Notes: generated by a model from the sequence alone, not told the origin. 64,000 nt of DNA from Candidatus Omnitrophota bacterium (GCA_003140935.1 PLLJ01000034.1:79505-143504), one strand, 5' to 3'; counted from the first letter of the stretch, positions 1,067 to 44,710 are shown. Numbers and translations: made by a program.

Positions 1067-1111
1067 TGCCGCCCCAATTTCATCTTTGTTAAAATTGATA
1101 AGTATTGGGAC
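1067..1111 (-). repeat. REP/MITE-like hairpin element, copy 5 (inverted orientation)
   Basis: tgccgccccaatttcatctttgttaaaattgataagtattgggac is the reverse-complement arrangement of the consensus GTCCCAATT..ATCAATTT(stem-loop)AAATTGGGGCA found at 4495, 12945, 26435 and 44645. Confidence 0.5.
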
Positions 1112-1233
1112 GCGCTATTGTAACAAAACACGTTTTAAGGCGACAGCCCAAACTTATCATTTCGTTCCCAAAATGGTAGTTTGGGCAGCCCCCATTTCAA
1201 CAAAACTAAAATTGAAAGGTGTTGAGACAGGCA

Positions 1234-2139
1234 TTAATTGACTGCCTGACATCTTTTATAAAGCACGGCGATCCACCGGCGCCCGCGGAGGATTTTTAAG
1301 CACCTCAACGGAGCCCCGAAAAATCCACGCCTGAATGCCGGGAAGTTCTGAATGGCGATCCCCGACACAAGAAGATGACCTCCCGGGCGAACACGGGCGA
1401 TGATCCTCTCACGATGTTCCAAGAGGGTCTTGGAAAGCAGGTTCGCGCCGACGGTGTCAAAATAGCCGGAGACTTTCGTCCTCTTGAGCTGCGCGTAAAA
1501 AAACCTCCCGTTCTCGCATTGATTCCTCCGGAAATTCTCCTGGGCAACAAAGATTGAGGGCTTATCATTGTCGTATCCGGTGATCTTCCCGGCACCCAAT
1601 TTCGCCGCCACGACCGACAGGATCCCGGTCCCGCACCCAATATCGAGAAAGCTCCCGATCTTCCCGGCAAGCGACTCGAGCAATCGTGCGATAAGACGCG
1701 TGGTCTCATGATACCCGGATCCGAACGCGCTCCCCGGTTCCAGATAGACCGGTATACGTGGACCGCCAGGCTTGAATTTGAGCCTCTCCCAAAACGGTAC
1801 GATCACGAACTTGGCACCAAGGGGCTTTATATGATAATCCCGTTTCCATTTATCGAACCAGTCGCACCGCCTGAGCCTCTTGACCTTAAGGGTAAGAGAG
1901 CCGCGGAGGTCCCATGTCTTGTATTTCTTTTTAACCTCTCGGACTTTCTTTGCGGAACGAGTGTAGCAGTTAACACGGAACGCGTCTTTGTAATCGGAAA
2001 AGACGAGATCGCGTCCCGGGATCCGGCAACTTAAAAGAAGTGCCCGGGCCGACACTTTTTCCTGAGCGCGAAGGCCATGACCACACAAGGCGATCTCAAT
2101 CACGGAATACTTTCCGGAGGGTCCGATGGCTTTTTTCAT
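1234..2139 (-). CDS. prmA: ribosomal protein L11 methyltransferase
   Basis: 301 aa with GSGYHETT and DIGCGTGILS SAM-binding motifs, and PrmA-type architecture. Confidence 0.8.
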   Translation of the reverse strand: MKKAIGPSGKYSVIEIALCGHGLRAQEKVSARALLLSCRIPGRDLVFSDYKDAFRVNCYTRSAKKVREVKKKYKTWDLRGSLTLKVKRLRRCDWFDKWKRDYHIKPLGAKFVIVPFWERLKFKPGGPRIPVYLEPGSAFGSGYHETTRLIARLLESLAGKIGSFLDIGCGTGILSVVAAKLGAGKITGYDNDKPSIFVAQENFRRNQCENGRFFYAQLKRTKVSGYFDTVGANLLSKTLLEHRERIIARVRPGGHLLVSGIAIQNFPAFRRGFFGAPLRCLKILRGRRWIAVLYKRCQAVN

Positions 2140-2957
2140 TCCAACGGATAATCGGAGATTTTGACGAACTTGTAGCCCTTGGCGCGGAGCTCACGAACTG
2201 CTTTCATCACGCTATCCACGAAGGAACTTTGTAGCGAGACGCCTCCAAGGATCGCGATAGCGCCCGCGGCGGGGTTCACGAGCACATCCAGGATCTTTTT
2301 CTGTCCAAAATTCTTGCCCTGCGCTCCACGGTCGAAAGAACCGAGGGCTTCGTACCCAAGCGCCTTGACAATGCGCACCGCCACCTCATCATAGTGACCG
2401 GATCCGGCGTGATAATATTGCGGCAGAATACCGGTGATCGCTTCGATTTTTCTGGCATTCCGTTCGATCTCCGCAAAAAGTTCTCCGATGTTGCCTGTAC
2501 CGGGGATTCCGTTTGCGCTCTTCCCGTTCACGGAACACGCCTTACGCGACACACCCTGATTTGCGATCTCAAAAAGAGGATTGGCGGCAAGCTTTTTGAG
2601 CATTGCGCTGTTCTTGTCGACCCAATCCCCGCAAACAAACAAAGTCGCGGGAATGTTCTCAGCCGTCAGGAATTTGATCAATTTCGCGTCTTGGCCCTTG
2701 TCCATCAGATCACAGGTGTCGACACCGAGCGCCAAGACCTTGTCCTCGGTTTTAAGACGTGTCTTGACGCCGGAGACCGCTTCCCCCCACTCGTGCGGGG
2801 CCTGGCCGGAAAACTCTGTATTGATAATCTCACGAAGAAGCTGGTAATCCTCGGGCTCGGGATCTCGTTCATGCTGGGGATTCGCCGCCATGCAAAACCA
2901 TTCCCCTTGCAAGGCACCGCACGCCAAAAATAGAAGGACCCAAATGATGCGTCTCAC
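2136..2957 (-). CDS. secreted polysaccharide deacetylase-like protein (divergent NodB-type)
   Basis: 273 aa with an N-terminal signal peptide (MRRIIWVLLFLACGALQG). Loose resemblance to carbohydrate esterase 4 / NodB proteins, but the canonical TFDDG motif is not obvious. 4-bp overlap with prmA. Confidence 0.35.
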   Translation of the reverse strand: MRRIIWVLLFLACGALQGEWFCMAANPQHERDPEPEDYQLLREIINTEFSGQAPHEWGEAVSGVKTRLKTEDKVLALGVDTCDLMDKGQDAKLIKFLTAENIPATLFVCGDWVDKNSAMLKKLAANPLFEIANQGVSRKACSVNGKSANGIPGTGNIGELFAEIERNARKIEAITGILPQYYHAGSGHYDEVAVRIVKALGYEALGSFDRGAQGKNFGQKKILDVLVNPAAGAIAILGGVSLQSSFVDSVMKAVRELRAKGYKFVKISDYPLE

Positions 2958-2960
2958 TTA

Positions 2961-3599
2961 TCAACCCTCGAAGTGCACTATCCTCCGCTCTTCAGGAACA
3001 TCGGAACTTCGTTCTATTTCTTTGAGCATCTTTTGAAGCAGTTCTTTGGGCAGGCCCACCACATTCGAATAGGAACCCCGGATCTTCCGCACAATCTTAA
3101 GCCTGCCTTGGATCGCATAAGCTCCGGCTTTATCAAAAGGATGGATGGTGTCCACATATTTTTGGAGCCAGGCTTCTCCGACCGGTTTCATCCATACATC
3201 GGTCCTGGCGCATCCGGTGAACACGCATCCTGTTTTCCGGTCCCAGATCGCAAGGCCGGTATAAACGGCATGTTTTCTCCCCGAAAGTCTGCGTAATATA
3301 CGCAAAGCTTCGGCACGGTTTCGAGGCTTTCCGAGACCGCGACCGTGATGCCAAACAATCGTGTCCCCTCCCAAAACAAAACGCCCGCCGCTTGGAAGTG
3401 CGGCTTTGCGGGCTTTTCCGATCGCGTGGCGTATGCAAAGGACCTCGGGAGTGGTTTTCCGGCACCACCGCTCACGGTACGCACTTGAGATAATCTTAAA
3501 AGGAACTTTTAAACTTTTGAGAAGTTCCCGTCTCCGGGAAGACTGGGAGGCAAGATATATAGTCCATCGACGTCTTGGCATGATCAAGGCCTCTGGCAC
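2961..3599 (-). CDS. maf: Maf-like nucleoside triphosphate pyrophosphatase (septum formation protein Maf)
   Basis: LASQSSRRRELL near the N-terminus and GAYAIQG near the C-terminus are Maf signatures. True start may be the internal MPRRRW. Confidence 0.75.
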   Translation of the reverse strand: MPEALIMPRRRWTIYLASQSSRRRELLKSLKVPFKIISSAYRERWCRKTTPEVLCIRHAIGKARKAALPSGGRFVLGGDTIVWHHGRGLGKPRNRAEALRILRRLSGRKHAVYTGLAIWDRKTGCVFTGCARTDVWMKPVGEAWLQKYVDTIHPFDKAGAYAIQGRLKIVRKIRGSYSNVVGLPKELLQKMLKEIERSSDVPEERRIVHFEG

Positions 3600-3632
3600 A
3601 TCGTGAGAGATCTGGAAGATAAATCCTAAATC

Positions 3633-3676
3633 AAATCAAAAAAAAAGAGGGGGTCGCGAAACCCCCTCTTTTTCGA
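3633..3676 (-). terminator. rho-independent terminator downstream of the 3694-4023 gene
   Basis: aaaaaaaaa GAGGGGGTCGCGAAACCCCCTC tttttcg: a GC-rich hairpin flanked by A and T runs. On the minus strand the hairpin is followed by a U-run. Confidence 0.6.
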
Positions 3677-3693
3677 ATACAAAATACAAACAA

Positions 3694-4023
3694 CTATTTT
3701 CCGCTAAGATCCACCGGGCTTGGAATTTCAATGTCAGCCGGGATCGGGAAGGTGACCAACTGAACGGCACCAAGAACCGTGGTGACACAGGTATCCATCA
3801 AACCCTGTCCAACGCCCTGCCAAACATTCTTCTTCTCATTGGAGTATTGGTTCGGAGTGGTAAAAATCTTGGTCCAACCAAGAACCGTGTTGGTCAAGCC
3901 ATACCCGAGCTTTCCCGAAACCTTCTCACCATAGGTTTTTCCATCCACCCACGGACTCGCGGCAAAAGCCAACGGCGCGAGCAGCATGGAGAGTACAATC
4001 ACCAGACTCATGATCTTCTTCAT
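3694..4023 (-). CDS. small secreted protein, probable exosortase-system-associated family (TIGR04073-like)
   Basis: 109 aa with a signal peptide. KLGYGLTNTVLGWTKI and GVGQGLMDTCVTTVLGAVQLVTFPIP resemble the conserved blocks I recall for TIGR04073. A strong SD (caggagga) 7 nt upstream supports the start. Confidence 0.5.
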   Translation of the reverse strand: MKKIMSLVIVLSMLLAPLAFAASPWVDGKTYGEKVSGKLGYGLTNTVLGWTKIFTTPNQYSNEKKNVWQGVGQGLMDTCVTTVLGAVQLVTFPIPADIEIPSPVDLSGK

Positions 4024-4087
4024 TGGTTTTCCTCCTGTTGGTTAGAACGTGAAACTTTTGAATCCCTCAAGATTCCGTTCTGGATTT

Positions 4088-4116
4088 ACTTTACTAAAAA
4101 AAATTTAATGATGCAA
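4088..4116 (-). promoter_or_regulatory. putative sigma70-type promoter for the 3694-4023 gene
   Basis: Minus strand reads TTGCAT-17 nt-TAAAGT, about 60 nt upstream of the start codon, in an AT-rich 360-bp intergenic region. Confidence 0.3.
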
Positions 4117-4389
4117 CCGATATTTCCATTTTTTTAATAGGATCATCGAGAGGTGTGCTATCGACCTCCCCTAAAAAAACTTAACGAAATCCCTTTACCC
4201 GGCGTGCAAGCCGGGTCCCGATCGAGGCGGCACACGATTGACATCAAATCGTGGTAACCTCGCATTTGCGCATCGGCGCAAGTGTTACTAAACCAAACCG
4301 CCCTAATACAAAAAACGCATTAGGACAGACCCTTTTTTTGTCTCTCAGGAAGAAAACCTTCGGTTTTCTATATCAACGCAAAAAAAGGG

Positions 4390-4462
4390 TCGGGGTGAGA
4401 GGAATTGAACCTCCGACATCTTGCTCCCAAAGCAAGCGCTCTAGCCCCTGAGCTACACCCCG
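4390..4462 (-). tRNA. tRNA-Pro (anticodon TGG)
   Basis: Minus strand: CGGGGTGTAGCTCAGGGGCTAGAGCGCTTGCTTTGGGAGCAAGATGTCGGAGGTTCAATTCCTCTCACCCCGA. 7-bp acceptor, anticodon stem CTTGC/GCAAG, loop TTTGGGA, T-loop TTCAATT, no encoded CCA. Confidence 0.85.
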
Positions 4463-4494
4463 AAGTGACCTTGTGATTTTTTTATATCGGAACT

Positions 4495-4552
4495 TCGGGG
4501 TTGTCCCAATTTTCCGATCATTTCAAATCGAAATTGGGGCACCCCGAAACAA
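4495..4552 (+). repeat. REP/MITE-like hairpin element, copy 1 (divergent)
   Basis: ggggttGTCCCAATTTtccgatcatttcaaatcgAAATTGGGGcaccccgaaac: inner CCCAATTT/AAATTGGG stem plus an outer CTTCGGGG/CCCCGAAA stem. Lacks the TTGTCACC..TTTAAAAAAAG tail of the other copies. Confidence 0.5.
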
Positions 4553-4615
4553 CTTCGTACCTTACTTAAGGCGAACGCCATTGTATCGACCGAGCCTATT
4601 GATGGCAAATGCTTC

Positions 4616-5698
4616 TCAAAATATCGACCGTTCTTTGTAGACGCTCAAGACAAGCCCCAGACAAAGACAGGTCATGATGAAAGAAGACCCCCCGTAACTG
4701 ACCAGGGGAAGCGGCACTCCGGCGATCGGCATCAGTCCGATGGTCATCCCGACATTGATTATCACATGCGAAAAAAGGAGCGCGAGCACCCCCCCGCAAA
4801 GCATCTTCGCCTTCACGTCCGTTGTATGCTGCATGACCAGAAAGATCGAATGAAAAAGGAACCCGTAGAGACACAACACGAGAAGACTTCCGAGAAATCC
4901 CAATTCCTCTCCGATCACGCAAAAGATGAAATCGGTGTGATGTTCGGGAACAAAATGAAGTTGCGTTTGCGTCCCGGCCAAATATCCTTTGCCCCAAAAC
5001 CCTCCCGACCCGACCGCGATCTTGGACTGGAGAGCCGTGTAGCCGGAACCCAGAGGATCCAGGCTGGGGTTAAGAAATACCATCAAACGCTTCTTCTGAT
5101 AACCCTTGAGAAATCCCCAGGCTAAAGGAGCTGCAAGCAACAGTGCGCTCAGACTCGTAATGAGAAAACGTTTTCGCACACCCCACAGGAAAAGTATGAC
5201 GATCGACATGGGGATAAAAAGAAGTGCCGTTCCGAGATCGGGCTGTTTGATGATCAGAAAAAGCGGCACGGCCAGAAGCAAGAGCGCGACACTTACCGTC
5301 TTAGTCTGACCTTCCCATGGATGATGGGATCCCAAGAAATTGACACCGGCCAGGAGCGCTCCGACTTTCGCGAATTCCGAAGGCTGGATCGCAATGGGAC
5401 CTAACGTCAGCCATCTCTGAGCACCCAAAACCTTGCTTCCAAAAAAATCGACCAAGACAAGCAAAATGAGCGTCAGAAAATAAAAAGGATAAGAAACGCT
5501 CAGGAAGGGACGATATCCGATAAAGGGAACGCTGATCAGCACCACCAAACCCGCCAAAATCCAGAAGACCTGCTTGGCCTCATAATTCCCTGGGTCACGA
5601 TAAGATGCGCTGTAAATAAAAAGGATCCCGATCGCGGCCAAAGCCACCACCGCAAAAAAAAGCGGGAAATGGATCTCGTTAAGCCACCGGCGCAACAT
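4616..5698 (-). CDS. rodA: rod shape-determining protein RodA (SEDS family peptidoglycan glycosyltransferase)
   Basis: 360-aa polytopic membrane protein of the FtsW/RodA/SpoVE family, located immediately downstream of mrdA-mreDCB. Confidence 0.8.
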   Translation of the reverse strand: MLRRWLNEIHFPLFFAVVALAAIGILFIYSASYRDPGNYEAKQVFWILAGLVVLISVPFIGYRPFLSVSYPFYFLTLILLVLVDFFGSKVLGAQRWLTLGPIAIQPSEFAKVGALLAGVNFLGSHHPWEGQTKTVSVALLLLAVPLFLIIKQPDLGTALLFIPMSIVILFLWGVRKRFLITSLSALLLAAPLAWGFLKGYQKKRLMVFLNPSLDPLGSGYTALQSKIAVGSGGFWGKGYLAGTQTQLHFVPEHHTDFIFCVIGEELGFLGSLLVLCLYGFLFHSIFLVMQHTTDVKAKMLCGGVLALLFSHVIINVGMTIGLMPIAGVPLPLVSYGGSSFIMTCLCLGLVLSVYKERSIF

Positions 5699-7406
5699 GA
5701 AGGTCCCTCCACGCCTCGAGCATCTGCTTCACAAGACGCGCGCTTGTGACACCCCCGGATCCGCCATGCTCCACGAACACGACGAACGCGATCTTCGGAT
5801 TTTTGTAGGGGAAAAATCCGGTCATCCAACTGTGCGCCTTCTGGGGCGGCGCCTGAGCGGTCCCGGTCTTGCCGGCCAGTTTATCAAAATCCACGCGCGC
5901 CAACTGCCCGGTCCCGTAATCTGATTCCACGACTTGGAGCATGGCCCTTTTGACCGCTTCAAGATTCTCTTCACGAATGGCTACCCGGGGAATCTCCGGC
6001 ATCACCGTGCTGTCTTGAACGACCAGGTGGGGCTCCACGACTTTGCCGTTCTTCGCGATGATCGAAGTAAGGCGGAGGATCTCGAAGGGAGTCACAAGCA
6101 TATAACCCTGCCCGATCGCCATATTGAGAGTTTCACCCTGGAACCAAGGCTGATTGAAATGCTCTTTCTTCCATGCGGAATCAGGGATGAGACCCGGAGC
6201 CATGCGCGAGATCTCGAGCTTGAGGGGCTCGCCGAGACCGAGTTCGTGGGCATAATGTGCGATCTCATCCGGCGTTAATCTTTTGGCCACATTAAAAAAA
6301 TAGACGTTACAGGAACGCTCGAGAGCCTCGTAAAGATTAAGGCTCCCATGACCCTCATGATTCCAGCAATGCACGGGTTTTGATTTCGGACCCAATTGAA
6401 AAGTACCGGTACACCGGAACCGTGTTTGGGGAGTGATCTTCCCGAGATCGAGTCCGGCGAGCGCCGTCACCAGTTTGAAGATCGAACCGGGAGGATAAGC
6501 GGCGTTGATCCCGCGATCCAACATCGGAGAGTTCTCGTCCTTCAGGATACGGAGACGCTGTTCACTGGCCGCCGGGGAAACAAAAATATTCGGATCATAG
6601 GCCGGTGCGCTGGCCAGCGCCAGAAGCCCGTCCGTCTCGAGGTCCAGAACGGCAATGCTTGCATGCAGACCGTTGACCATGCTCATGATCTTCTTTTGGA
6701 ATTCGAGATCCAGCGTAAGCTTGATATCGGAACCCGCCTCGGGCTTGCGATCTGAAAGCACCCGGACCATTTGCCCGCGCGCATCCACTTCGATCTGTTG
6801 CCCGCCCCGCCACCCGCGAAGATCATCATCAAAAGCCCTTTCAATCCCGGCCCGACCGATCTTGGAGTTGATTCCAAACCTGTCGTGGTCCATATCCTCG
6901 TACTCGCGGGGACTCACCGCCCCAATGTAGCCGATCACGTGCGAAGCCGTTTCGCCGTAAGGATAATAACGGATGCCCTCAACACGAACACTTACGCCGG
7001 AAAGTTCCGGCCGTCGTTCTTCAATGAGGAATGCGAGTTCTTGAGGAACATCTTCCTTGATCACCGCCGGCGCGAATGGATACTCACGGCCCGCACTCAT
7101 GCGCCGTCGGACCTCCTTTTCCGGAATCTCCAATAACTTCGCGAGCCTTGGATAAACCTCAGGGGTGATATCTTCCGGAATCGCAATGACGTTGTAGGAA
7201 GGACGATTCGCGGCAAGCAACCGATCCTTCTGATCGAGCACGCGTCCGCGCGGAGCTTCGAGAGGAATAAGGCGAACTCGGTTACGCTTGCTGAGTTCGT
7301 AGTAGTAAGACCCGCGCAAAACCTGCGTTTGGAAGAGCCCCAGCCCCAGAAGGGCCATGAGAATAAAAACGAACGTCTGGAAGAAATGAAACCGTGTGAA
7401 CATCAT
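5679..7406 (-). CDS. mrdA: penicillin-binding protein 2 (elongasome transpeptidase)
   Basis: SxxK (GSIFK), SxN (SCN) and KTGTAQ motifs. Follows mreD and precedes rodA. ORF track start 7448; I prefer the internal MMFTRFHFF start (7406), which abuts the mreD stop. Confidence 0.8.
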   Translation of the reverse strand: MMFTRFHFFQTFVFILMALLGLGLFQTQVLRGSYYYELSKRNRVRLIPLEAPRGRVLDQKDRLLAANRPSYNVIAIPEDITPEVYPRLAKLLEIPEKEVRRRMSAGREYPFAPAVIKEDVPQELAFLIEERRPELSGVSVRVEGIRYYPYGETASHVIGYIGAVSPREYEDMDHDRFGINSKIGRAGIERAFDDDLRGWRGGQQIEVDARGQMVRVLSDRKPEAGSDIKLTLDLEFQKKIMSMVNGLHASIAVLDLETDGLLALASAPAYDPNIFVSPAASEQRLRILKDENSPMLDRGINAAYPPGSIFKLVTALAGLDLGKITPQTRFRCTGTFQLGPKSKPVHCWNHEGHGSLNLYEALERSCNVYFFNVAKRLTPDEIAHYAHELGLGEPLKLEISRMAPGLIPDSAWKKEHFNQPWFQGETLNMAIGQGYMLVTPFEILRLTSIIAKNGKVVEPHLVVQDSTVMPEIPRVAIREENLEAVKRAMLQVVESDYGTGQLARVDFDKLAGKTGTAQAPPQKAHSWMTGFFPYKNPKIAFVVFVEHGGSGGVTSARLVKQMLEAWRDLHVAPVA

Positions 7407-7918
7407 CGGAAAAGCTCGTATTGTCTGGCGGCAGAATGGCCGAACCACCGGTCTGTTAGAAAATTAAAGAGAGGCAAGAGCGCGGTTGTATAAAGCGCTG
7501 TCATCGTGATCATCCCCAAATAGTTCCCAACAAAGGATGGCGGCAATTCACCCGCATAGCTCACCAGAAGTCTTAAAGCCCCCGCGCAGAAGACAAAAAG
7601 GAACGTAATGATGAAATGGATCCCCGGCAACTGTCGCTCCATTTTTTGGATCAAGAAATCAAGCGCCGGAGCTAAAACGACCAGAAGGATCGCATCAAGC
7701 CCGATCAACCCGCCCCCCAAAAGGTCCCGCAGAAGCCCGGCCCAGAACGCGACATAAACGGTCTTGGTCGCCCCCCATTCAAAAGCAGCGTAGCAAATGA
7801 AAAGGTAAAGAAGGCTCGGATACGTGGAACGGATCTGAAAGGCCGGCATCACAGACCCATCCAGGACCGCAAGCAAAATAAAATAAAGAATTACTTTTGC
7901 GGAGACGAGACGATGCAT
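7403..7918 (-). CDS. mreD: rod shape-determining protein MreD
   Basis: 171-aa polytopic membrane protein between mreC and mrdA. Confidence 0.65.
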   Translation of the reverse strand: MHRLVSAKVILYFILLAVLDGSVMPAFQIRSTYPSLLYLFICYAAFEWGATKTVYVAFWAGLLRDLLGGGLIGLDAILLVVLAPALDFLIQKMERQLPGIHFIITFLFVFCAGALRLLVSYAGELPPSFVGNYLGMITMTALYTTALLPLFNFLTDRWFGHSAARQYELFR

Positions 7919-8724: not shown

Positions 8725-8797
8725 AAAGATCCTGAAAAAACGACTTCCTCAGATGTCAGGAGACTGCTTTCGGAGGGGCGCTAAAACAAAAAAACTT

Positions 8798-12813: not shown

Positions 12814-12944
12814 AATGCTTTCTCCTTTTAGTTTGAACCGAGTTCCCGCATCCGACGTCCCGGACCCGCGCCCACGGCCTTTGCTGGGTTAGTATCATAC
12901 AATACAGTTTCAAAGACAACAATAAAGCTTTTCTTTTTTTGTGA

Positions 12945-13011
12945 GTCCCAATTCCAATCAATTTCATCGAAGATGAAATTGGGGCAATCCTTGTCACCCT
13001 TTTAAAAAAAG
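12945..13011 (+). repeat. REP/MITE-like hairpin element, copy 2
   Basis: GTCCCAATTccaatCAATTTCATCgaaGATGAAATTGGGGCAatcCTTGTCACCcTTTTAAAAAAAG: a perfect 10-bp inner stem CAATTTCATC/GATGAAATTG. Confidence 0.6.
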
Positions 13012-13033
13012 AACGCCGGACAAGGATAGAAGA

Positions 13034-26117: not shown

Positions 26118-26226
26118 CTTGTATCCGCCTTCCTTACGGTCCACAACCACTGGTACTGCATTACTATTTATTCTAAAGGCTCGCAGTGCCGTACCGTCAA
26201 CCCTTAAAATTGATCGAAGACGGTAC

Positions 26227-26304: not shown

Positions 26305-26434
26305 CTGATGAATCCCGCTTATCTTCTATATCGATCATCAGGACGCCTTTAGAAAACACGTGCCCTGTGACAGATCTAACCCACGATTGAAAAACAAGTT
26401 GCGGGGAGAATAAAAGCGCTAAAAACGAACTCGG

Positions 26435-26498
26435 TCCCAATTTTTATCAATTTTTGAGAATCTGAAATTGGGGCAGCACTTGTCACCATTTAAAAAAG
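26435..26498 (+). repeat. REP/MITE-like hairpin element, copy 3
   Basis: GTCCCAATTtttATCAATTTttgagaatctgAAATTGGGGCAgcaCTTGTCACCaTTTAAAAAAG. Confidence 0.6.
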
Positions 26499-26623
26499 CA
26501 AAATTAAGACGAGTGCAGTATAGCTTTGCCCCTATAGAATGTCAACGGACACACACCCCGGAAAAAACAGCCTAAAACAAGGGAGACTTTCCGGAACGAT
26601 CGAATGACTTGTAAAAGCGCTCT

Positions 26624-26902: not shown

Positions 26903-27027
26903 AAGAGTCACCTCGTGCGGGAGTATAGCATAACCCAGGAGAACGCAAAATGGGAAACACGATGTGAAAAAACCGGGATTCGTCCCTCGCCTGGCTCTCA
27001 TTCAAATTTTTATTGAAAGCCAGTGCA

Positions 27028-27066
27028 GTACTGAATAACCATTAATTTTTATCAGTTATTCAGTAC
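27028..27066. repeat. perfect 12-bp inverted repeat (hairpin) downstream of xerD
   Basis: GTACTGAATAAC-cattaatttttatca-GTTATTCAGTAC. Confidence 0.5.
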
Positions 27067-36137: not shown

Positions 36138-36156
36138 TGATTTTTCGCTTGCTTGG

Positions 36157-36357
36157 TTACCGCTTTTTTAAATGAAGCGAAAGGAATTTTTCCACAGACC
36201 GGTCATAGGTTCTTTCGACGTCTTTGGGAAAATAACAGGCAGGCAACTGGTTCTGGGCCCGGTGGTAAGCCACACACTCACAGCAGACCCCCTTGCGGGG
36301 GCAAGAATCGTAGGTGCAATTGCAATGCTTCTTGTTGACCTCGATCTGACATTCCAT
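36157..36357 (-). CDS. small cysteine-rich protein (conserved CNCTY..C....CC.C..YH family)
   Basis: 66 aa from MECQIEVNKKHCNCTYDSCPRKGVCCECVAYHR: eight Cys in a compact pattern. Confidence 0.45.
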   Translation of the reverse strand: MECQIEVNKKHCNCTYDSCPRKGVCCECVAYHRAQNQLPACYFPKDVERTYDRSVEKFLSLHLKKR

Positions 36358-36385
36358 CGGCACCCTCACCTCGGATGGTAAAAAA

Positions 36386-36460
36386 TGGTCGGGGTGATAG
36401 GATTTGAACCTACGACCTCTCGGTCCCGAACCGAGCGCACTACCTCTGTGCTACACCCCG
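36386..36460 (-). tRNA. tRNA-Pro (anticodon CGG), CCA encoded
   Basis: Minus strand: CGGGGTGTAGCACAGAGGTAGTGCGCTCGGTTCGGGACCGAGAGGTCGTAGGTTCAAATCCTATCACCCCGACCA. Anticodon loop TTCGGGA. Confidence 0.85.
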
Positions 36461-36591
36461 ACGATATTCATATGCAATGATTTTATCTGTTCATTCAGTC
36501 CGCAAAAGGCGGACCCGGATTTTCCGCCAGACAGCGCGGCGGACCTGTCCCAAAGCGCTGTCGGACGGACCCGCCATCGCTTTTTGGCGGG

Positions 36592-36648
36592 GAACCTACG
36601 ACCTCTCGGTCCCGAACCGAGCGCACTACCTCTGTGCTACACCCCGAC
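36592..36648 (-). repeat. partial tandem duplicate of the tRNA-Pro(CGG) 5' portion (acceptor/D/anticodon arms, no T-arm)
   Basis: About 57 nt identical to 36404-36460 (aacctacgacctctcggtcccgaaccgagcgcactacctctgtgctacaccccgac), separated from the intact gene by about 130 bp. Confidence 0.7.
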
Positions 36649-36747
36649 AACTGAATAATCCGGTTATTTTAAAATATCGATCTGTGATTATTGGCGTGTC
36701 AGGGCGGGGATTATATCACCCTCATTAGGAGTATTCAATCAAAGGCA

Positions 36748-38502: not shown

Positions 38503-38505
38503 TTT

Positions 38506-38898
38506 TTAGGAGGAAAGATCTGTTTTTGCCTGGGCCGTTTGGATCCACCGGCCAAGAAAACTCGTCACCTTGGAAGAAAGAGTGCTCGTGACCTTGGGTC
38601 CCGACGAGGCGGGAATCACAAGCTCGGAAACGGGCGGCACTTCCACCACTTGGATCTTGTTAGGAATCGCTAATCCCATGTCATGATGTTTCATTTTCGC
38701 TTCTAGCAGGCGGGGGGCCCTCAACTGGTCGACCTTGAATTGAAATTTTCGAAGTATCTCTTGTTTCTCGGCCAACGCGCGGGAACTCGTATGGATATCG
38801 AAAGAGACTAGAACGGAAGCAATTTGTAAATGCACATAGAAAAGCATTGCGCAAGTCAGGATGGCTATAAGCACTAAAATCTTTCCGCTGCCTTTCAT
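38506..38898 (-). CDS. ftsL: cell division protein FtsL-like
   Basis: 130 aa: short cytoplasmic N-terminus, one TM, coiled coil. Conserved position between rsmH and ftsI. Confidence 0.55.
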   Translation of the reverse strand: MKGSGKILVLIAILTCAMLFYVHLQIASVLVSFDIHTSSRALAEKQEILRKFQFKVDQLRAPRLLEAKMKHHDMGLAIPNKIQVVEVPPVSELVIPASSGPKVTSTLSSKVTSFLGRWIQTAQAKTDLSS

Positions 38899-39803
38899 GA
38901 TATTTTTTCGATCACTCTCAGTTTGGCGCTTCTTGCTCTTGGATTATTCAATATTTCCGAACGGTTTGCAACTACTGGTTTACGAAAAATCAAACTTCCG
39001 CGCTCCTCGTCGTCCCATTTCCGGAACTGACGCTTCACGATCCTGTCCTCCATCGAATGAAAGCTGATAATTCCGAGCCGCCCGGTCTTAGTGAGATGAT
39101 CGAACGCCGCGGTCATACCTTCCTTGAGCGCTTCCAACTCATCATTGACTCCGATCCGGAGAGCCTGGAACACTTTGGTCGAGGGGTGACGCCGTGCCCA
39201 GGATGGCCTCTGCCCTTTTTTAAATCTCATATGGGCGGGCAACGCTTGTTCCAGCGTCTGGTTGAGATCTTCGATCGTACGGATGGGTTGTTGCCGCCGT
39301 CTTTCTACAATGACACGGGCAAAACGGCGTGAGTTGCGTTCTTCGCCATAATGATAGAAAAGATCCGCAAGCTCGGCTTCAGACATTTGAGCGAGCAGTT
39401 CTGAAGCCTTAAGACCGACTTCCGGGTTCATCCGCATATCCAATTCCCCTTCCGTTTGGAAACTGAAACCGCGCTTCCCATCCGCCAATTGTTCCGACGA
39501 GGTCCCGATATCTAAGAGTACTGCGTCGAATGCCGCCACTCCCAGTCCCGAAAAGACTTTCTCTAAATTCCTGAAATTCTCGTGCACCAACGTGACCCGC
39601 GGATCCTTTTGGAACAACACACGGCAACGCGCGATCGCCTCAGGATCCTGATCAAATCCGATCAATTTTCCTGAGGGACCTATTACCCCGAGGATCGCCT
39701 CCGCATGCCCTCCGCTCCCGAGGGTCCCATCCATCACAACAGCCCCGGGTTTTAAAGCGAAAGACCCAAGAACTTCCTGTAAAAGAACGGGGTTATGCCG
39801 CAA
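38895..39803 (-). CDS. rsmH: 16S rRNA (cytosine1402-N4)-methyltransferase RsmH (MraW)
   Basis: VMDGTLGSGGHAEAIL, DQDPEA and LLDIGTSSEQL motifs. Confidence 0.9.
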   Translation of the reverse strand: MRHNPVLLQEVLGSFALKPGAVVMDGTLGSGGHAEAILGVIGPSGKLIGFDQDPEAIARCRVLFQKDPRVTLVHENFRNLEKVFSGLGVAAFDAVLLDIGTSSEQLADGKRGFSFQTEGELDMRMNPEVGLKASELLAQMSEAELADLFYHYGEERNSRRFARVIVERRRQQPIRTIEDLNQTLEQALPAHMRFKKGQRPSWARRHPSTKVFQALRIGVNDELEALKEGMTAAFDHLTKTGRLGIISFHSMEDRIVKRQFRKWDDEERGSLIFRKPVVANRSEILNNPRARSAKLRVIEKIS

Positions 39804-40131
39804 AACTAAGGATCGCCTCTTCTTCTGTCGAATAACTTTCCATCAAACCATTGACCCCGATCATCTGGAAAGTCTTTTCGACTTCGGGCCGCAAATTGCA
39901 CAATTTGATATCCCCTTTTTGTTCACGCACCTTGCGCAAACGGTCTACCAAAATGCCGACGCCCGCCAATTCCACATGTTTCGTATCTTTCAGGTCCAGC
40001 AAGAGGCGCTTGTGGTTTCTGTTAAGCAGACGGTTCATGCGACCTTTCATTTTGATCATGCTAAGAGCATCGAGATCTCCGTTGAAACGCAACACATCCA
40101 CCCCGACCTTCGTTCTGGCATGATAAACCAT
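39793..40131 (-). CDS. STAS-domain anti-sigma-factor antagonist (SpoIIAA-like)
   Basis: 112 aa; DLKDTKHVELAGVGILVDRLRKV carries the STAS fold signature. Confidence 0.65.
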   Translation of the reverse strand: MVYHARTKVGVDVLRFNGDLDALSMIKMKGRMNRLLNRNHKRLLLDLKDTKHVELAGVGILVDRLRKVREQKGDIKLCNLRPEVEKTFQMIGVNGLMESYSTEEEAILSFAA

Positions 40132-40144
40132 GATGACCCCTTTC

Positions 40145-40582
40145 TTATTCCGATACTAATTTTTCTGCGAGTTCTTCAAAGTGGTTCTTATGATTATCAA
40201 AAAAGCTTTGCCATTTTTCTTTTGCCCAGATTTCAATACGACTTGAAACTCCCACGATCATGACGTCCGTCTTAATGTCGGCATAAGTCTTAAGATAGTC
40301 CGGGATGAGGATCCTCCCCTGCTTATCGCAAACAACTTCGGAAGCACCCGAGAAAAAAAGCCGGTTGAAAGTTCTGGATTCGGCTTTGGTAAAAGGCATA
40401 TCGCGAAACTTTTTTTCTTCCGTCTTCCATTGTTCTTCGGTGAAAACAAACAAACATTGATCAAGGCCGCGTGTGATAAAAAAGCGCTCTACATAGCGCT
40501 CCTTGAAAATCTCGCGGAATTTGGCAGGGATCATCACGCGGCTTTTGGTATCGATCACATGTCCGAATTCACCGTAAAACAT
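40145..40582 (-). CDS. mraZ: transcriptional regulator MraZ
   Basis: 145 aa; duplicated DxxxR motifs in the contexts IDTKSRVMIPAKFRE and CDKQGRILIP. Confidence 0.85.
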   Translation of the reverse strand: MFYGEFGHVIDTKSRVMIPAKFREIFKERYVERFFITRGLDQCLFVFTEEQWKTEEKKFRDMPFTKAESRTFNRLFFSGASEVVCDKQGRILIPDYLKTYADIKTDVMIVGVSSRIEIWAKEKWQSFFDNHKNHFEELAEKLVSE

Positions 40583-40603
40583 GGATTTTCTTTCCTTTCA
40601 TAT

Positions 40604-40674
40604 TCCCACTTCATCCCACTTTATCCCACTTCATTATCGACGGCAGTATATATTTCCCTTAATATCGTGTCAAT
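40604..40674 (-). promoter_or_regulatory. mraZ promoter (TTGACA-17-TATACT) with three MraZ-box direct repeats (GTGGGA at 10-bp spacing) in the leader
   Basis: Minus strand: TTGACAcgatattaagggaaataTATACTgccgtcgataatgaAGTGGGAtaaaGTGGGAtgaaGTGGGAatatgaaaggaaagaaaatccATG. Confidence 0.65.
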
Positions 40675-40833
40675 ATTCTTTTTTATTGGGAATCCGTTAA
40701 ACCCATCCATAGTATCCTCCTAAAAAGGAACCACAAGATGATGGGCAAAAATATAGTGCTTAAGACAGAGCGGGGCCGCTAGGTTGTAACCTTAAGGGGA
40801 TGAGAGACGGCGAATGGTTGGAACGGAAGAAAG

Positions 40834-41550
40834 CTAGTTTTCGAAGTAGAGAATGCGGGAACAGTTCTCGCAAACAATGATCTGCTCGCCGAGCCGGATC
40901 TCATTGATGAGTTGCGGGCGCAACTTCATCTGGCAAGCAGCACAAACTTCACCGTTTACAACGGCAAGAGCCAGTCCCTGCTTTTTGAGAGCGATCCGGC
41001 TGTAAAGCTCCCCAAGTTCGGGCGGCAATTCCGCGACAGATTCTTCGCGCTGTTTTTTCAAAACTGCAAGACGTTCCTGCAAAGTCTTTTCTTGACCGGC
41101 CATTTCGTTATCCCGGTCCTGGAAAGATGTAGTGATGGATGAGAATTTTTCTTTTTCTTTGCGGGTCTCTTCTTTCGCCGCATCCACTTCATCCATAATA
41201 TGAATGATCCCTTCCTCGAGAAGCGAATTATCGGCCTTCAAAGAAGCGATCTCCTGTTGAAGCGCGGCGTATTCCTTGTTCGTTTTCACCTGGGAGAGTT
41301 GCCCGTCGAGCTTTTTGATTTGCGTTTCTTTCTGCATAAGTTCTATTTCTTTTTCTTTCTGTTTCAACTGTATATCCTTGAGGGATTTCTCCAGTTCATG
41401 GAGATGGACCTTTTCGAGTTCCAATTCGGATTTGAGCTGAGCCCGCTGCGCAGGGATTTCTTCCAGAAGAATATGAGTGTGATGGATCTCACTATCCAAT
41501 TGCTGGGCTTTTTTCAAGGCATCAAGATTCTGGGCAATAGGGCCTGTCAT
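40834..41550 (-). CDS. zinc-ribbon domain protein with N-terminal coiled coil (DUF164 / zf-RING_7 family)
   Basis: Long coiled coil with the family-typical NKEYAALQQEI block and a C-terminal CAACQMKL...CENCSRIL C4 ribbon. Confidence 0.65.
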   Translation of the reverse strand: MTGPIAQNLDALKKAQQLDSEIHHTHILLEEIPAQRAQLKSELELEKVHLHELEKSLKDIQLKQKEKEIELMQKETQIKKLDGQLSQVKTNKEYAALQQEIASLKADNSLLEEGIIHIMDEVDAAKEETRKEKEKFSSITTSFQDRDNEMAGQEKTLQERLAVLKKQREESVAELPPELGELYSRIALKKQGLALAVVNGEVCAACQMKLRPQLINEIRLGEQIIVCENCSRILYFEN

Positions 41551-41678
41551 AAGTGCAGCGATTATAGAAGAGATGGGAGGCACCATCAAGGACGAAATAC
41601 GAAACGCCTGTGCAAGTCACACTACGCATAACGTCTCTTTCGCCACCCTACTGAAAAGCCGCACTCCTCTTTAATATT

Positions 41679-42785
41679 TCAGGCGATGCCTTTGGAACCC
41701 AGGGGCATGATCTCCCCTCCTCCCAGGCATACATCTTTCCGGTAGAGCACAGCAAATTGGCCAGGAGTCACAGCCCGCTGGGGTTTATCAAAAACGATCC
41801 TCGTTCGGTTCCCGGAAAGAGGATAAAGCCTGCCGGGCGCCGCGGCTTGACGGTACCGGATCTTCGCCTTGACGCGCAGAGACCGCTTGGGCATTCCGCC
41901 GATAAAGTTACACGGAGAAAGAAGCACTTCCCGGCTCAAAAGCTTTTTTTCGTCACGGGTCACTCGGAGAACATTGCGTTTTATATCGGATCCCATCACA
42001 AAGAAAGGCCCGCCCGAAAACCCGAGCCCCTTGCGCTGGCCCACCGTATAAAAATGAAGCCCTTGATGAGTGCCGATCACATGCCCCATATCATCCCGAA
42101 CTTCGCCTTCATTTCTTCCGATCTCCTTAACAAGGAACGGCTCCATCGCATTCCCTGAAACAAAACAAAAGTCCTGGCTCTGCTTACGTTTGAGAAAGAT
42201 CTCAAAACCTCGCTTCGCGGCCATTAGGTAGATTTCTTTTTTTGTATATTTCCCCAGAGGGAACACGACACGGCGAAGCTGGTCCTGTGAAAGAAAACTC
42301 AGGGAGTAAGTCTGGTCTTTTTCCGCGTCTTTACTTGTGAGAAGTTCGAACTTCCGGGTCCTTGGATTCTTCCGGACCTGTGCGTAATGCCCGGTCGCCA
42401 CATGCGCGATATGGTGGCGTGACGCCCATGCCAGAAGTTGTTTGAATTTGAGGTGCCTGTTGCACATCACGCAGGGATTCGGGGTCTTGTGATCGCGCAA
42501 GCGGCCAAGGAAATAATCCATGACCTCTTTTTCGAAATCACGCGATACATCGACGATATGATAAGGAACGCCCAGTGTTTTACAGACATCTTCCGCGATC
42601 TGAAAGGATTCCGTACTGCAGCAGATATTCTCTCTCAGGCAATTCGCCTCGTCGTGCCAAACAGGGTACTTGAGCGAAACGCCGACCGGATCCCATCCCT
42701 GTTCTTTCAGGAGTACGAGCGCCATGGAGGAATCCACGCCACCCGACATCCCGACCACAATGGGCCTTCGCTCTTTTCTCTTCAT
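41679..42785 (-). CDS. mnmA: tRNA-specific 2-thiouridylase MnmA
   Basis: PP-loop VVGMSGGVDSS, catalytic Cys pair, about 368 aa from MKRKERRPIVVG (ATG at 42783-42785). ORF-track start 42986 is an over-extension. Confidence 0.85.
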   Translation of the reverse strand: MKRKERRPIVVGMSGGVDSSMALVLLKEQGWDPVGVSLKYPVWHDEANCLRENICCSTESFQIAEDVCKTLGVPYHIVDVSRDFEKEVMDYFLGRLRDHKTPNPCVMCNRHLKFKQLLAWASRHHIAHVATGHYAQVRKNPRTRKFELLTSKDAEKDQTYSLSFLSQDQLRRVVFPLGKYTKKEIYLMAAKRGFEIFLKRKQSQDFCFVSGNAMEPFLVKEIGRNEGEVRDDMGHVIGTHQGLHFYTVGQRKGLGFSGGPFFVMGSDIKRNVLRVTRDEKKLLSREVLLSPCNFIGGMPKRSLRVKAKIRYRQAAAPGRLYPLSGNRTRIVFDKPQRAVTPGQFAVLYRKDVCLGGGEIMPLGSKGIA

Positions 42786-42795
42786 GACAATAAGC

Positions 42796-43488
42796 TCAGG
42801 GCCTTCCGAAGAAATGATAGAAACCCGACAATCGGAGGCCGAAAGTAAAACGGGAACCCGAAGAGGCCGAGACCTTAATGCGCCGCAAAAGATAGGGATT
42901 CCCCACACATCTACGGTCGTGCACATGGCTTGCGGCACAGCCATACGCATACCCCGTGCTACGGACCATTTCAATGATCCCTTCATTAAAGGAACCGCAC
43001 GGATAAGAGATCGCCTTTATTTCACGGCCGAGCTTTTCCTCCAGGATCTTCTTGGAAATAACCACGGAAGTTCGGGCCTCTGTCCCGAGCATATCGGAAA
43101 GCGGTTTGTGCTCAAGCGTGTGGCTCCTGATCTCGATCCCGGGAACTGCAGCCATTTCACGAAGCATGTCCCAAGTCATGAAGCCTGCCTTGCCCACGTC
43201 CGCTGCCGTGACAAAAAAAGTAGCAGAAAATCCAAACTCTTTAAGGACGGGAAAGGCCTGCTGGTAATTATCCAGATAGCCATCATCGAATGTGATCGCG
43301 GTTTTACGCTCCCAAAGATTCTCTTTCCACCTTTCTTTCGCGCACGCCGCAAGCCCGATCACCTGGCATCGTTCTTGCTTGATCCAAAGCATTTGTTTCC
43401 TGAAAAGCCCGGGGCTGATCGCAAGCTTATTCGGAAACCGCTTCGGATCGAGACTATGATAAGCAAGGATCGGAATGAATTTCTTCAT
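42796..43488 (-). CDS. polysaccharide deacetylase (NodB homology domain, CE4)
   Basis: Canonical motif 1 ITFDDGYLDNY, and motif 2 H..H context. Confidence 0.75.
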   Translation of the reverse strand: MKKFIPILAYHSLDPKRFPNKLAISPGLFRKQMLWIKQERCQVIGLAACAKERWKENLWERKTAITFDDGYLDNYQQAFPVLKEFGFSATFFVTAADVGKAGFMTWDMLREMAAVPGIEIRSHTLEHKPLSDMLGTEARTSVVISKKILEEKLGREIKAISYPCGSFNEGIIEMVRSTGYAYGCAASHVHDRRCVGNPYLLRRIKVSASSGSRFTFGLRLSGFYHFFGRP

Positions 43489-44603
43489 GCCTTTCCCGCC
43501 AGAACATTTTCATAAACCTTCAGGATGCGTTCGCACATTACGGAAGAAGTATATTCCAGCGCTGCTTGGCGGGCCGCTTTGCCCATTTGGGAACGCAATG
43601 ACGTGTCCTTTGCATAGCGGAGAAAACAGGACGCGAGATCCGACACATTTTCCCTTTCGAAGAGTAGTCCGTATTTCCCATGCCCCAAAAGATCCACAAT
43701 ACCGCCGGAAATGGATCCCACCACGGGCAACCCAACTGCCATGGCCTCCAGCACGGCAAGCCCGAAGGCTTCCGGCCAGAGATAGGGCGCCGCGAAAATA
43801 TCCCCGGCGCGTAAAGGCTTCTCAATCTCAGGTTCATTCCCGAGAAAAAGCACATCTCTCTCGAGTTTCAATTCCTTCACACGATCCTTCAGCTCTTGCG
43901 TGTAAACCGGATCTCCTGAACCCGACACGAGTAATTTTAATTCCCGAGCTTCTTTGCGCGCCGCCGCAAAAGCCTCGATCAAGATGTGGACACCTTTGAC
44001 GGAGATCAATCGGGAAAGCGACAGGATAACAAGGTCTTCGTTCTGGTATCCATAATTTTTTCGGATCTTGTCGCGATCAGCGCTGTCAAATTTTGCGCAC
44101 AGCTTCTCCACATCGATTCCGTTCGGCACGACGATAATGGGAGGCAATTCTTTTTCCTTAAAGATAGTCCTTAAACCCTCTTCCATGACGTTAGAAATAG
44201 CAATGATCTTTTTTCCCCAACACGGAAAAAGGCGGCGCCCTAAGCGGCGCTTGTAGAACATATGTGCCGTTGAAACGTAGGGAATTTTGACAAAAAAAGT
44301 CGCTGCCGCGGCAAGCACCTGTGTCACGCGGGTGTGCGTGTGGATGATGTCGATGGACCGGGTCTTCAGGATATGAATAAGCTTGGGCAACGTAAGCCAA
44401 AGCCTCGGAGAAAGCTCGCTTTTACAACGCGGAACATCTCCCAAAACCGTGCTTCCTCCGGCTCGCAGATCTTGGGAGCAGCTTCCGTCAGCGCCCCAGA
44501 CGAAGACATCATGCCCGGCCTTGACCTGCTCTCCGGCCAAGGTACGGATATAGGTAGTGATACCACCGGTATTCAAATGATTTGTGAGATGCAGGATCTT
44601 CAA
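43485..44603 (-). CDS. glycosyltransferase family 4 (GT-B, RfaB-like)
   Basis: N-terminal MKILHLTNHLNTGGITTYI and a C-terminal E-x7-E-containing GT4 domain. Confidence 0.75.
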   Translation of the reverse strand: MKILHLTNHLNTGGITTYIRTLAGEQVKAGHDVFVWGADGSCSQDLRAGGSTVLGDVPRCKSELSPRLWLTLPKLIHILKTRSIDIIHTHTRVTQVLAAAATFFVKIPYVSTAHMFYKRRLGRRLFPCWGKKIIAISNVMEEGLRTIFKEKELPPIIVVPNGIDVEKLCAKFDSADRDKIRKNYGYQNEDLVILSLSRLISVKGVHILIEAFAAARKEARELKLLVSGSGDPVYTQELKDRVKELKLERDVLFLGNEPEIEKPLRAGDIFAAPYLWPEAFGLAVLEAMAVGLPVVGSISGGIVDLLGHGKYGLLFERENVSDLASCFLRYAKDTSLRSQMGKAARQAALEYTSSVMCERILKVYENVLAGKA

Positions 44604-44644
44604 GCTTCCCTCTCAACAGGATTCTATGCAACGAGGCATTATAG

Positions 44645-44710
44645 TCCCAATTCTTATCAATTTCAGAGAAACTGAAATTGGGGCAATCCTGACTACCCTT
44701 TAATAAAAAG
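44645..44710 (+). repeat. REP/MITE-like hairpin element, copy 4
   Basis: GTCCCAATTcttATCAATTTCAGagaaaCTGAAATTGGGGCAatcCTgactACCcTTTAAtAAAAAG: a perfect 9-bp inner stem CAATTTCAG/CTGAAATTG. Confidence 0.6.

Follow-up and report, generated by a model that had tools for sequence, protein, structure and literature searches.

A small modular hairpin repeat of Candidatus Omnitrophota, very probably mobile, and the matched triplets at its ends

The intergenic spacers of a 64,000-nt stretch of DNA from a Candidatus Omnitrophota bacterium (GCA_003140935.1 PLLJ01000034.1:79505-143504, referred to throughout as the window) hold a recurring hairpin element, which raises the question of whether this is a mobile DNA repeat or a structured RNA present in many copies. 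The Omnitrophota are uncultured, ultra-small bacteria. An earlier reading made from the sequence alone (the sequence-only reading) reported five copies and favoured a mobile element of the repetitive extragenic palindrome (REP) or miniature inverted-repeat transposable element (MITE) type over a gene for a non-coding RNA. We found all five copies at the places reported and arrived at the same preference, on the basis of 14 independent pairs of filled and empty orthologous sites. The copies represent a two-hairpin unit, here called the A/B element, which is very probably a mobile, REP/MITE-like structured DNA repeat, and which is selfish-looking DNA rather than a gene. The account that we favour overall, and regard as probable, is that of a clade-specific, small, non-autonomous and modular family of mobile DNA repeats.

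On its sense strand the unit is laid out as a triplet xyG, module A (a hairpin TCCCAAT…ATTGGGGC), module B and again xyG. Module A reads TCCCAAT-nnnn-ATCAATTT[variable stem top, 3-5-nt loop]GAAATTGGGGC, and module B reads y'x'TCC[5-6 variable bp]-ACC(A/C)TT…purine-rich loop…[complement]GGA, with a variable stem of 9-11 bp and a loop that starts with ACC. Including both triplets the total length is 86-88 nt, most commonly 87 nt; the inserted unit is 84 nt (range 83-85 nt). A basic design is common to both modules, namely a hairpin of about 39 nt with a stem TCC…GG(A/G) and a loop of about 22 nt starting (A)ACC; in module A, the stem of which is TCCCAAT/ATTGGGG, the loop carries an extra inner hairpin. 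Between neighbouring modules lies a junction of 3 nt, [T/C][A/G]G. A followed by B, 84 nt in all, is the mobile unit met most often; the modules also combine as A-A'-B-B, as A-B-B and as A-B-A-B running head-to-tail over a common junction triplet, and B- or C-type hairpins occur singly. A precedes B in direct orientation nearly always and tandem arrays run head-to-tail, with a few convergent pairs (L080, L091 and L008; L numbers denote the loci compared). Comparison of the two ends revealed no terminal inverted repeats, in that TCCCAATACC (left end) and TCCTTGTCTT (right end, complement) have only TCC (3 nt) in common. The G of the preceding triplet is conserved in 97%, and no conserved sequence was found in the flanks outside the junction triplet.

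This anatomy changes the outline that had been drawn from the window. The family is real and highly non-random, yet its proposed extent was too short: what had been read as a 'CTTGTCACC…TTTAAAAAAAG' tail makes up the 5' arm and the loop of hairpin B, and the 3' arm, which had been missed, follows about 20 nt further on. The inner-stem variants had been read correctly (CAATTTCATC/GATGAAATTG, CAATTTCAG/CTGAAATTG and CAATTT/AAATTG), although the last of these and the outer CCCAAT/ATTGGG stem need the same 3' ATTG and cannot both form fully, contrary to what had been drawn.

Filled and empty sites were compared by a systematic search for the flanks over all loci. Wherever both flanks were found flush in another locus, exactly 3 nt always lay between them there. 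Of 14 independent, non-nested events, nine have at the empty site the very triplet found to the left of the element at the filled site, and four show a one-base difference (TAA or TGG for TAG; CGG for TGG); the remaining event is taken up below. It follows that 84 nt are inserted, 3' of a pre-existing [T/C][A/G]G. The sites of the window vary in the same comparison. The spacer between the lpd-like gene and prmA in L115 is 75 nt long and free of the element, while the window has two copies there around a 30-nt core that is homologous to the L115 spacer. At the mscL–GT4 site, L070 has no copy and L089 has three tandem copies at exactly the position occupied in the window; the tRNA-Glu copy is common to the window and L082. 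Units expand in tandem and insert into one another, and the sequence of the element is conserved across about 20 species while its position is polymorphic.

The hairpins themselves are maintained, as had been proposed, by compensatory change. Over 80 aligned canonical copies, 94.5% of the stem cells are paired, against 81.5% in shuffles, and double-change cells number 326 against 107 ± 21 (0 of 500 shuffles reached the observed value), a count that is inflated by copies related through descent. Pairing falls to 30-54% when the partners are slid by 1-3 columns. Ten of the 11 pairs of the B stem covary, as do the top three of the A stem (20, 36 and 17 double changes). Because the search pattern itself prescribed the invariant cores GTCCCAAT and GAAATTGGGGC, these are uninformative in this test; they can vary, as seen in copies found by the model outside that pattern, for example the second copy beside prmA (1144-1230). 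In the B stem there are 15 G·T/T·G cells to two A·C/C·A cells once a habitual mismatch column is set aside, a ratio to which common descent again contributes, and RNA folds of the wobble-bearing copies are better for the sense strand than for the antisense strand. The excess of G·T over A·C, 15 to 2, indicates, if indirectly, that it is the sense strand that has to fold. The L082 orthologue of the tRNA-Glu copy has undergone a compensatory change at one site, C-G to A-T, its B stem being GCCCTTGTC/GACAAGGGC.

Such observations are also what one would look for in a structured RNA family, be it a small RNA in many copies or an element acting in cis as a leader, as a stabiliser or in processing, with hairpins selected as RNA and spread by duplication. 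The strong covariation, the excess of G·U over A·C on one strand, the better sense-strand folds of wobble-bearing copies, the conserved loop motifs and the in-place change in L082 all fit it, as does a near-consensus sigma-70-like promoter that would transcribe the tRNA-Glu copy together with the tRNA. In addition, of 137 copies 13 are immediately next to the start codon of a gene on the opposite strand (…CAT followed by AG TCCCAAT); the antisense A end must then supply the 5' leader of that gene, most of these copies having AGGU about 9 nt before the start. Such leaders, however, are read from the antisense strand, the one bearing the A·C mismatches. Nor is there a fixed orientation to transcription: by crude gene calls, 37 copies are antisense and co-directional, 22 divergent, 22 sense and co-directional, and 21 convergent. 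The unit is sharply bounded and has no conserved promoter or terminator inside or beside it, some copies lie in frame within proteins, and the indels are precisely 84 nt at a matching triplet. Only tRNAs reached the gathering score of Rfam 15 in the window and nine loci, and a search of one copy at E ≤ 10 gave chance-level hits only, at most 17.6 bits, so that no Rfam family matches even at that threshold. We consider an RNA family very unlikely. Resident copies of a mobile repeat may nevertheless secondarily affect neighbouring genes as leaders or ribosome-binding sites; in seven copies the left triplet is the stop codon TAG.

Other functions for the unit were examined and rejected. As a promoter, its antisense A end offers TTGAAA at 17 nt from the edge only in some copies, the hexamer changing along with the covarying stem. 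Against a terminator, neither hairpin is followed by a T-run, whichever strand is read. A small open reading frame (ORF) within the unit is contradicted by in-frame stops in TAG-type copies and by the unit length of 83-85 nt. An uptake or anchoring sequence, the alternative offered by the sequence-only reading, is unsupported: the unit is 87 nt long and structured, and its count per kb is low.

The triplets at the two ends carry further information. In most of 89 copies the same triplet stands at the 5' and the 3' end (TAG 32, CAG 9, CGG 8, CTG 4, and others), and an internal triplet C-y'-x' at the 5' foot of hairpin B follows the type of the terminal one. Its x' complements x in 76 of 80 copies when compared with the 5' flank and in 78 of 80 when compared with the 3' end; at the middle position y' equals y where y is A or T (A·A or T·T, which is the case in most copies) and is the complement of y where y is G or C. 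In L022 and L122 the terminal triplets differ: the left one, CAG, is that of the empty site and the right one, CTG, is that predicted from the internal triplet. The left triplet is therefore the target and the right triplet the element's own. One intergenic region holds units of two types in different species: that of L023 is of the CGG type and occupies a CGG, and those of L097 and L076 are of the CTG type and occupy a CTG 13 nt from it.

Most copies have the same 3 nt to their left and right, and empty sites have these 3 nt once, as would follow from a conventional MITE, that is, double-stranded DNA moved by a DDE transposase with a 3-bp target-site duplication, and the small size, high copy number and mostly intergenic location of the element agree with it. 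Plain target-site duplication is insufficient because the flank triplet correlates with an internal base. The supposed duplication is fixed at 3 nt but limited to [T/C][A/G]G, and in 76 of 80 copies it covaries with the internal base; in copies with unlike triplets, the right one is of the internal type and the left one is that of the empty site. Moreover, terminal inverted repeats are absent, the ends having only TCC in common, and the wobble asymmetry is strand-specific. A conventional MITE is accordingly quite unlikely, and the MITE half of the earlier class assignment does not survive in its classical sense. Target choice by complementarity or identity to a triplet borne by the element itself, on the other hand, can yield the correlation between flank and interior.

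With respect to the mode of movement of the mobile repeat, the absence of terminal inverted repeats, the differing hairpins at the ends, insertion 3' of a preserved target, the complementarity at the foot of B and the fold of one strand are the grounds on which we would tentatively place it with single-strand HUH mechanisms, by analogy. The element would move via a folded single-stranded DNA intermediate, which an HUH/Y1-type enzyme supplied in trans would cut and rejoin in the 'peel and paste' style of IS200/IS605, and the element's own triplet would select the target by base pairing. In its most specific form, the element would be a self-targeting miniature single-strand transposon, the internal C-y'-x' 'guide' of which sets both its own right-end cut and its landing triplet; it would be moved by a host enzyme of the Omnitrophota, possibly from one of two domesticated Y1_Tnp families. 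Guides of different types (TAG, CAG, CTG, CGG and TGG) would then take different sub-families to different triplets. This specific form is rather unlikely as it stands.

The behaviour of the A/B element most resembles, by analogy, that of IS200/IS605-type elements, including their ORF-less palindrome-associated derivatives. In IS608, insertion takes place 3' of a short target, which is not duplicated; its TnpA, a Y1 HUH enzyme, binds the subterminal hairpins, and guide bases at the hairpin foot recognise the tetranucleotides of cleavage site and target by canonical as well as non-canonical pairing (PMC3201880). Like members of IS200/IS605 such as IS608, the A/B element has no terminal inverted repeats, has a different hairpin at each end, and lies 3' of a short, specific target, nothing being gained or lost at the donor joint. 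At the 5' foot of its right hairpin is a short sequence complementary, non-canonical position included, to one that resembles a terminal cleavage site, which may correspond to the guide bases of IS608 (PMC3201880) despite a different geometry; one strand appears to be the active one, which for the A/B element is suggested by the B-stem wobbles and the folds. Unlike IS608, its target is 3 nt rather than 4-5 nt and is the same as the right-end triplet (TTAC and TCAA in IS608), its loops are long (about 22 nt), and no tnpA-carrying parent was found.

Likenesses to other repeats are looser. REPs are thought to be processed by REP-associated tyrosine transposases (RAYTs) as single strands, like IS608 (PMC8266576). 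The REPs, bacterial interspersed mosaic elements (BIMEs) and REP doublets (REPINs) of E. coli, Pseudomonas and Stenotrophomonas are, like the A/B element, high-copy and mostly extragenic hairpins that follow a short conserved motif (PMC8266576, PMC3333891); mosaic clusters of hairpin types, restriction to a species or clade, and presumed non-autonomous, single-strand processing are further points in common. The A/B element differs from them in its direct pairs and direct tandems, in its motif ([T/C][A/G]G, not GTAG), in its loops of about 22 nt, in a core sequence that is conserved across about 20 species, and in that the RAYT of its clade is bracketed by another palindrome. The Rickettsia palindromic elements, which Ogata and colleagues are said to have described in 2000, are reportedly 100-150 bp long, inserted in frame in protein genes and tolerated as peptide segments. 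The in-frame A/B inserts of L116, L041 and L028 are similar to these, although the sequences are unrelated and most A/B copies are intergenic. Pneumococcal BOX elements are modular (boxA-boxB(n)-boxC), with mobility and targets undefined, and the Correia elements of Neisseria have 26-bp inverted repeats and a TA duplication. Like both, the A/B element is modular (A, A', B and C-type), forms stable secondary structure, lies between and near genes and may supply a promoter or leader; it has no sequence relationship to either, and the matched 3-nt target sets it apart.

A mobilising enzyme was sought around the copies. Searching E. coli RayT by tblastn against the genome loci gave nothing better than E 0.4, and an HUH…Y regular expression had no match in the genome loci and one in the metagenome loci (L217); phmmer with RayT against the PDB misses even IS608 TnpA, so single-sequence negatives are weak. 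Inverted pairs of copies were rejected as transposase carriers: that in L020 encloses an HPr-like gene, that in L028 a LacI-like gene, and those in L069 and L095 genes for small secreted proteins. Two genes with a Y1_Tnp domain (PF01797) do lie beside copies, at L217 3023-3688 and L100 3521-4186, and the two families were followed to 11 further contigs. Proteins of the L217 type retain intact HUH and Tyr motifs and have 2073 database relatives, many named as Omnitrophota; the gene is single-copy and syntenic, in the conserved order giant gene – Y1_Tnp – DUF1844 – LPG_synthase_TM – aroQ – accB – accC. Most members of the L100 type are 320-335 aa long with a C-terminal extension (the L100 protein has 221 aa), and their gene has a secretin/TPR cluster on one side and a giant protein on the other and lies behind a cyclic di-GMP-I riboswitch. 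That riboswitch (RF01051), which has a terminator, scored 54.7 bits at 2818-2896 in L246 and 64.7 bits at 2818-2897 in L248, and L247 and L249 have similar sequence; downstream of it a gene encodes a membrane-anchored Y1_Tnp-domain protein, in a conserved operon of secretin, TPR proteins and a giant protein.

The L217 type bears on whether A/B copies could be REPs in the strict sense, substrates of the clade's RAYT that form a REPtron with it. A Y1_Tnp with intact HUH and Tyr is indeed present in the clade, with an A+B copy 140 nt upstream in L217; A+B-like copies occur within 400 nt of Y1_Tnp in L239 and L244, and in L100 the gene starts 36 nt past the end of an A+B copy. REPs, furthermore, are hairpins that follow a conserved motif and are processed as single strands (PMC8266576). 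By the usual criterion, however, the cognate REP is the bracketing palindrome, and it is not A/B. A/B copies are merely nearby in three of the four L217-type contigs and absent near the gene in L242, their proximity could be chance given the density of copies, and A/B units are direct pairs rather than inverted REPIN/BIME pairs. The L217-type gene and its palindrome are a classical REPtron with its own REP, unrelated to A/B. We thus hold it unlikely that A/B copies are REPs of this kind, and both Y1_Tnp families are possible partners, neither of them a convincing one. Of the earlier proposals, the search for a RAYT in the clade was rewarded, with a palindrome other than A/B at its borders, and the REP/MITE label holds in the sense of a mobile repeat and not by the REPtron definition.

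Several observations weigh against the mobile, single-strand and self-targeting account, in addition to the effect of descent on the counts given above. With regard to the sites, (i) one of the 14 events is unrelated (L075, CGG versus AGA/GGA/TGC), and (ii) the orientation bias of copies is weak (37 versus 22) and not in the direction predicted by a simple lagging-strand model. With regard to the comparison with IS608, (iii) the A/B triplets abut the stems whereas those of IS608 lie 19 and 10 nt away, and (iv) a single internal triplet would have to serve both ends. With regard to the enzyme, (v) no autonomous A…gene…B copy was found among about 350 A modules, (vi) no transposase-like family was enriched near copies when 787 ORFs were clustered, and (vii) no Y1 HUH transposase with matching element ends was present in 1.63 Mb around copies, a weak negative as this covers less than whole genomes. 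Lastly, (viii) the L217-type Y1_Tnp/RAYT genes (L217, L239, L242 and L244) are bracketed by perfect palindromes that differ and are species-specific, (ix) several L100-type members are without the first His or the Tyr, and (x) A/B copies were absent near the L100-type gene in four further contigs.

The distribution of the family accords with its description as clade-specific. Copies beyond the window, the lack of which would have told against a family, were plentiful: at least 117 stretches of a genome collection with one genome per species and at least 120 stretches of metagenome contigs carry the element, and viral contigs gave 0 matches. Among the genome matches listed, all but two are from Candidatus Omnitrophota metagenome-assembled genomes (MAGs), about 20 in number; the two exceptions are a chance match in a Lysobacterales MAG and a bin labelled proteobacterium. 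The covariance model gave 166 hits in 670 kb of genome loci, and at least 288 full-length copies are present in 1.63 Mb of loci from about 20 Omnitrophota MAGs and metagenomes. The proteins on either side of the window copies share 66-96% identity with their counterparts in element-bearing MAGs, which places the window within this clade; the giant ORF at its right end, described below, agrees with that placement. The searchable literature yielded nothing relevant on Omnitrophota or Omnitrophica repeats or RNA motifs, and as far as this literature and Rfam show, the repeat family is new. Copies that keep an open frame persist within protein-coding genes, several giant ORFs among them, and each adds about 28-29 residues (e.g. 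VPIPxNFxxxEIGAVPxxxxEKK), and many contigs end within copies.

Within the window, a covariance model built from the 80 aligned canonical copies and run with filters off recovered the four canonical copies reported earlier at 78.6-95.3 bits (E 2e-18 to 9e-23) and, in addition, an overlooked one, so that the count of five becomes six with the divergent copy (Table 1). The gene neighbours had been given correctly (prmA–lpd-like, rodA–tRNA-Pro, nrdR–SWIB, ORF–tRNA-Glu and mscL–GT4), except that two copies rather than three adjoin tRNA genes. The sixth copy, with flanks CTG…CTG and a B stem CCCAAACT/AGTTTGGG, begins 3 nt past the prmA stop codon and lies 30 nt from its neighbour; in the latter, the A module occupies about 1070-1113 and the B module about 1027-1071, between junction triplets GCG (5') and CCG (3'). 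The triplets and B stems of the remaining canonical copies are GAG…TAG with TCCTTGTC/GACAAGGA at nrdR–SWIB, CGG…CAG with GCACTTGTC/GACGAGTGC, including one T·G wobble, at tRNA-Glu, and TAG…TAG with TCCTGACT/AGTCAGGA at mscL–GT4. The 12-mer GAAATTGGGGCA has four exact occurrences on the + strand of the 64-kb window, each full unit gave a two-hairpin fold (z -3.2 to -6.9), and a sizeable share of several short intergenic spacers is occupied by the element.

The copy at 4495-4552 of the sequence-only reading is present as a divergent variant in the leader of tRNA-Pro(tgg), at 23 bits, with flanking arms that repeat the first 8 nt of the tRNA. It is a composite of a B-like hairpin (4457-4500), the 5' arm of which complements the first nucleotides of tRNA-Pro, a short A-like hairpin (4503-4541, detected with nhmmer and the A module) and an orphan arm ACCCCGAA (4541-4549); its DNA fold has -20 kcal/mol and z -4.4. 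The orthologous leaders of L048 and L094 contain two such units each, every unit being bounded by TCGGGGTG. In these three species the tRNA-Pro(tgg) leader consists of one to two units with flanking arms that repeat the first 8 nt of the tRNA. Two single hairpins may, at lower confidence, be related. The one at 26186-26226 (DNA fold z -3.4) appears to belong to the same design family as the A+B element, and its class, TACCGTTAACCC, recurs beside A+B copies at six loci; the one at 27026-27066 folds with -9.2 kcal/mol (z -6.1) and matches the covariance model weakly, at 16 bits.

Table 1. Coordinates of A/B copies and of related or neighbouring features (window positions unless a locus is named)
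Feature	Location	Strand	Details
Canonical A+B copy, copy 1 of the sequence-only reading	1027..1113	-	78.6 bits, E 2e-18 (covariance model); second-hairpin arms CTGATT…AATCAG
Canonical A+B copy	1144..1230	-	68.5 bits, E 9e-16 (covariance model)
Divergent composite, tRNA-Pro(tgg) leader	4457..4549	+	Covariance model 23.4 bits on -, 13.2 bits on +
Canonical A+B copy, nrdR–SWIB spacer	12943..13029	+	90.9 bits, E 1e-21 (covariance model); second-hairpin arms CCTTGTC…GACAAGG
Related single-hairpin module, lower confidence	26186..26226	+	Stem TACCGTC/GACGGTA, loop start AACCC; generic stem and ACC-loop search
Canonical A+B copy, ORF–tRNA-Glu(ctc) spacer	26432..26518	+	86.8 bits, E 1e-20 (covariance model)
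Related single-hairpin module, lower confidence	27026..27066	+	12-bp stem, loop from CC of ACCATT; stem and ACC-loop search
Canonical A+B copy, mscL–GT4 glycosyltransferase spacer	44642..44729	+	95.3 bits, E 9e-23 (covariance model); second-hairpin arms ATCCTGACT…AGTCAGGAT
In-frame copy, NuoI-like ferredoxin	L116 5108-5192		Between two [4Fe-4S] motifs; Fer4_7 match spans 84 residues versus a 52-position profile
In-frame copy, PhoR-like histidine kinase	L041 6173-6257		Within sCache domain
In-frame copy, histidine kinase	L028 3223-3306		Between HisKA and HATPase_c
Further in-frame copies	L006, L010, L093		
RAYT-bracketing palindrome	L217 2929, 3016, 3698		GGACACACCCGGTGTGTCC
RAYT-bracketing palindrome, four times	L239 about 3885-5040		GTACACACCCGGTGTGTAC
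RAYT-bracketing palindrome	L242 about 3850-3950		GTCAAATCCGGGATTTGAC

Some further features of the window and related loci are recorded here. At the edge of the copy that neighbours tRNA-Glu(ctc), at 26517-26545(-), lies a near-consensus sigma-70-type promoter (TTGACA-17-TATACT, 11 of 12 matches) that is conserved in L082 and would transcribe the antisense strand of the copy and then tRNA-Glu(ctc). At the mscL–GT4 copy the junction TA starts a -10-like hexamer, TATAAT (44638-44666(-)); in many loci where the top of the A stem is CAAC/GTTG or CAG/CTG, the antisense A end reads TTGAAA or CTGAAA at exactly 17 nt from the element edge. The antisense A end and the junction TA may thus make an outward hybrid promoter, which is not conserved across sub-types. 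Past mscL, an intrinsic-terminator-like hairpin with a T-run (44745-44774(-)) stands immediately upstream of the same copy in the order of transcription, as it does in L089. A truncated duplicate of tRNA-Pro(cgg), comprising its first ~58 nt, was found at 36587-36646(-), about 125 nt upstream of the intact gene (36386-36460(-)); the Rfam tRNA model scores it at 30.8 bits, ARAGORN makes no call, and GC-rich hairpins lie between duplicate and gene. A similar duplication of the 5' part of a tRNA, tRNA-Leu, surrounds an A module in L104. A single ORF of at least 6017 aa, typical of giant Omnitrophota genes, runs off the right end of the window (45932-63985(-)) and has no A/B copies inside it.

For the Omnitrophota, the A/B element accounts for many of the 'conserved intergenic hairpins' and for odd inserts of 28-29 residues in the proteins of their MAGs. 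Because many contigs end within copies, the copies are also a likely cause of assembly breaks. The matched triplets of flank, interior and terminus offer a directly testable case of target choice encoded by an element of only 84 nt, and a handle for finding the enzyme. Were the self-targeting form of the account to prove true, this would be the smallest known element with programmable target choice, and it would have done much to shape the intergenic regions, tRNA leaders and even proteins of an uncultured phylum.

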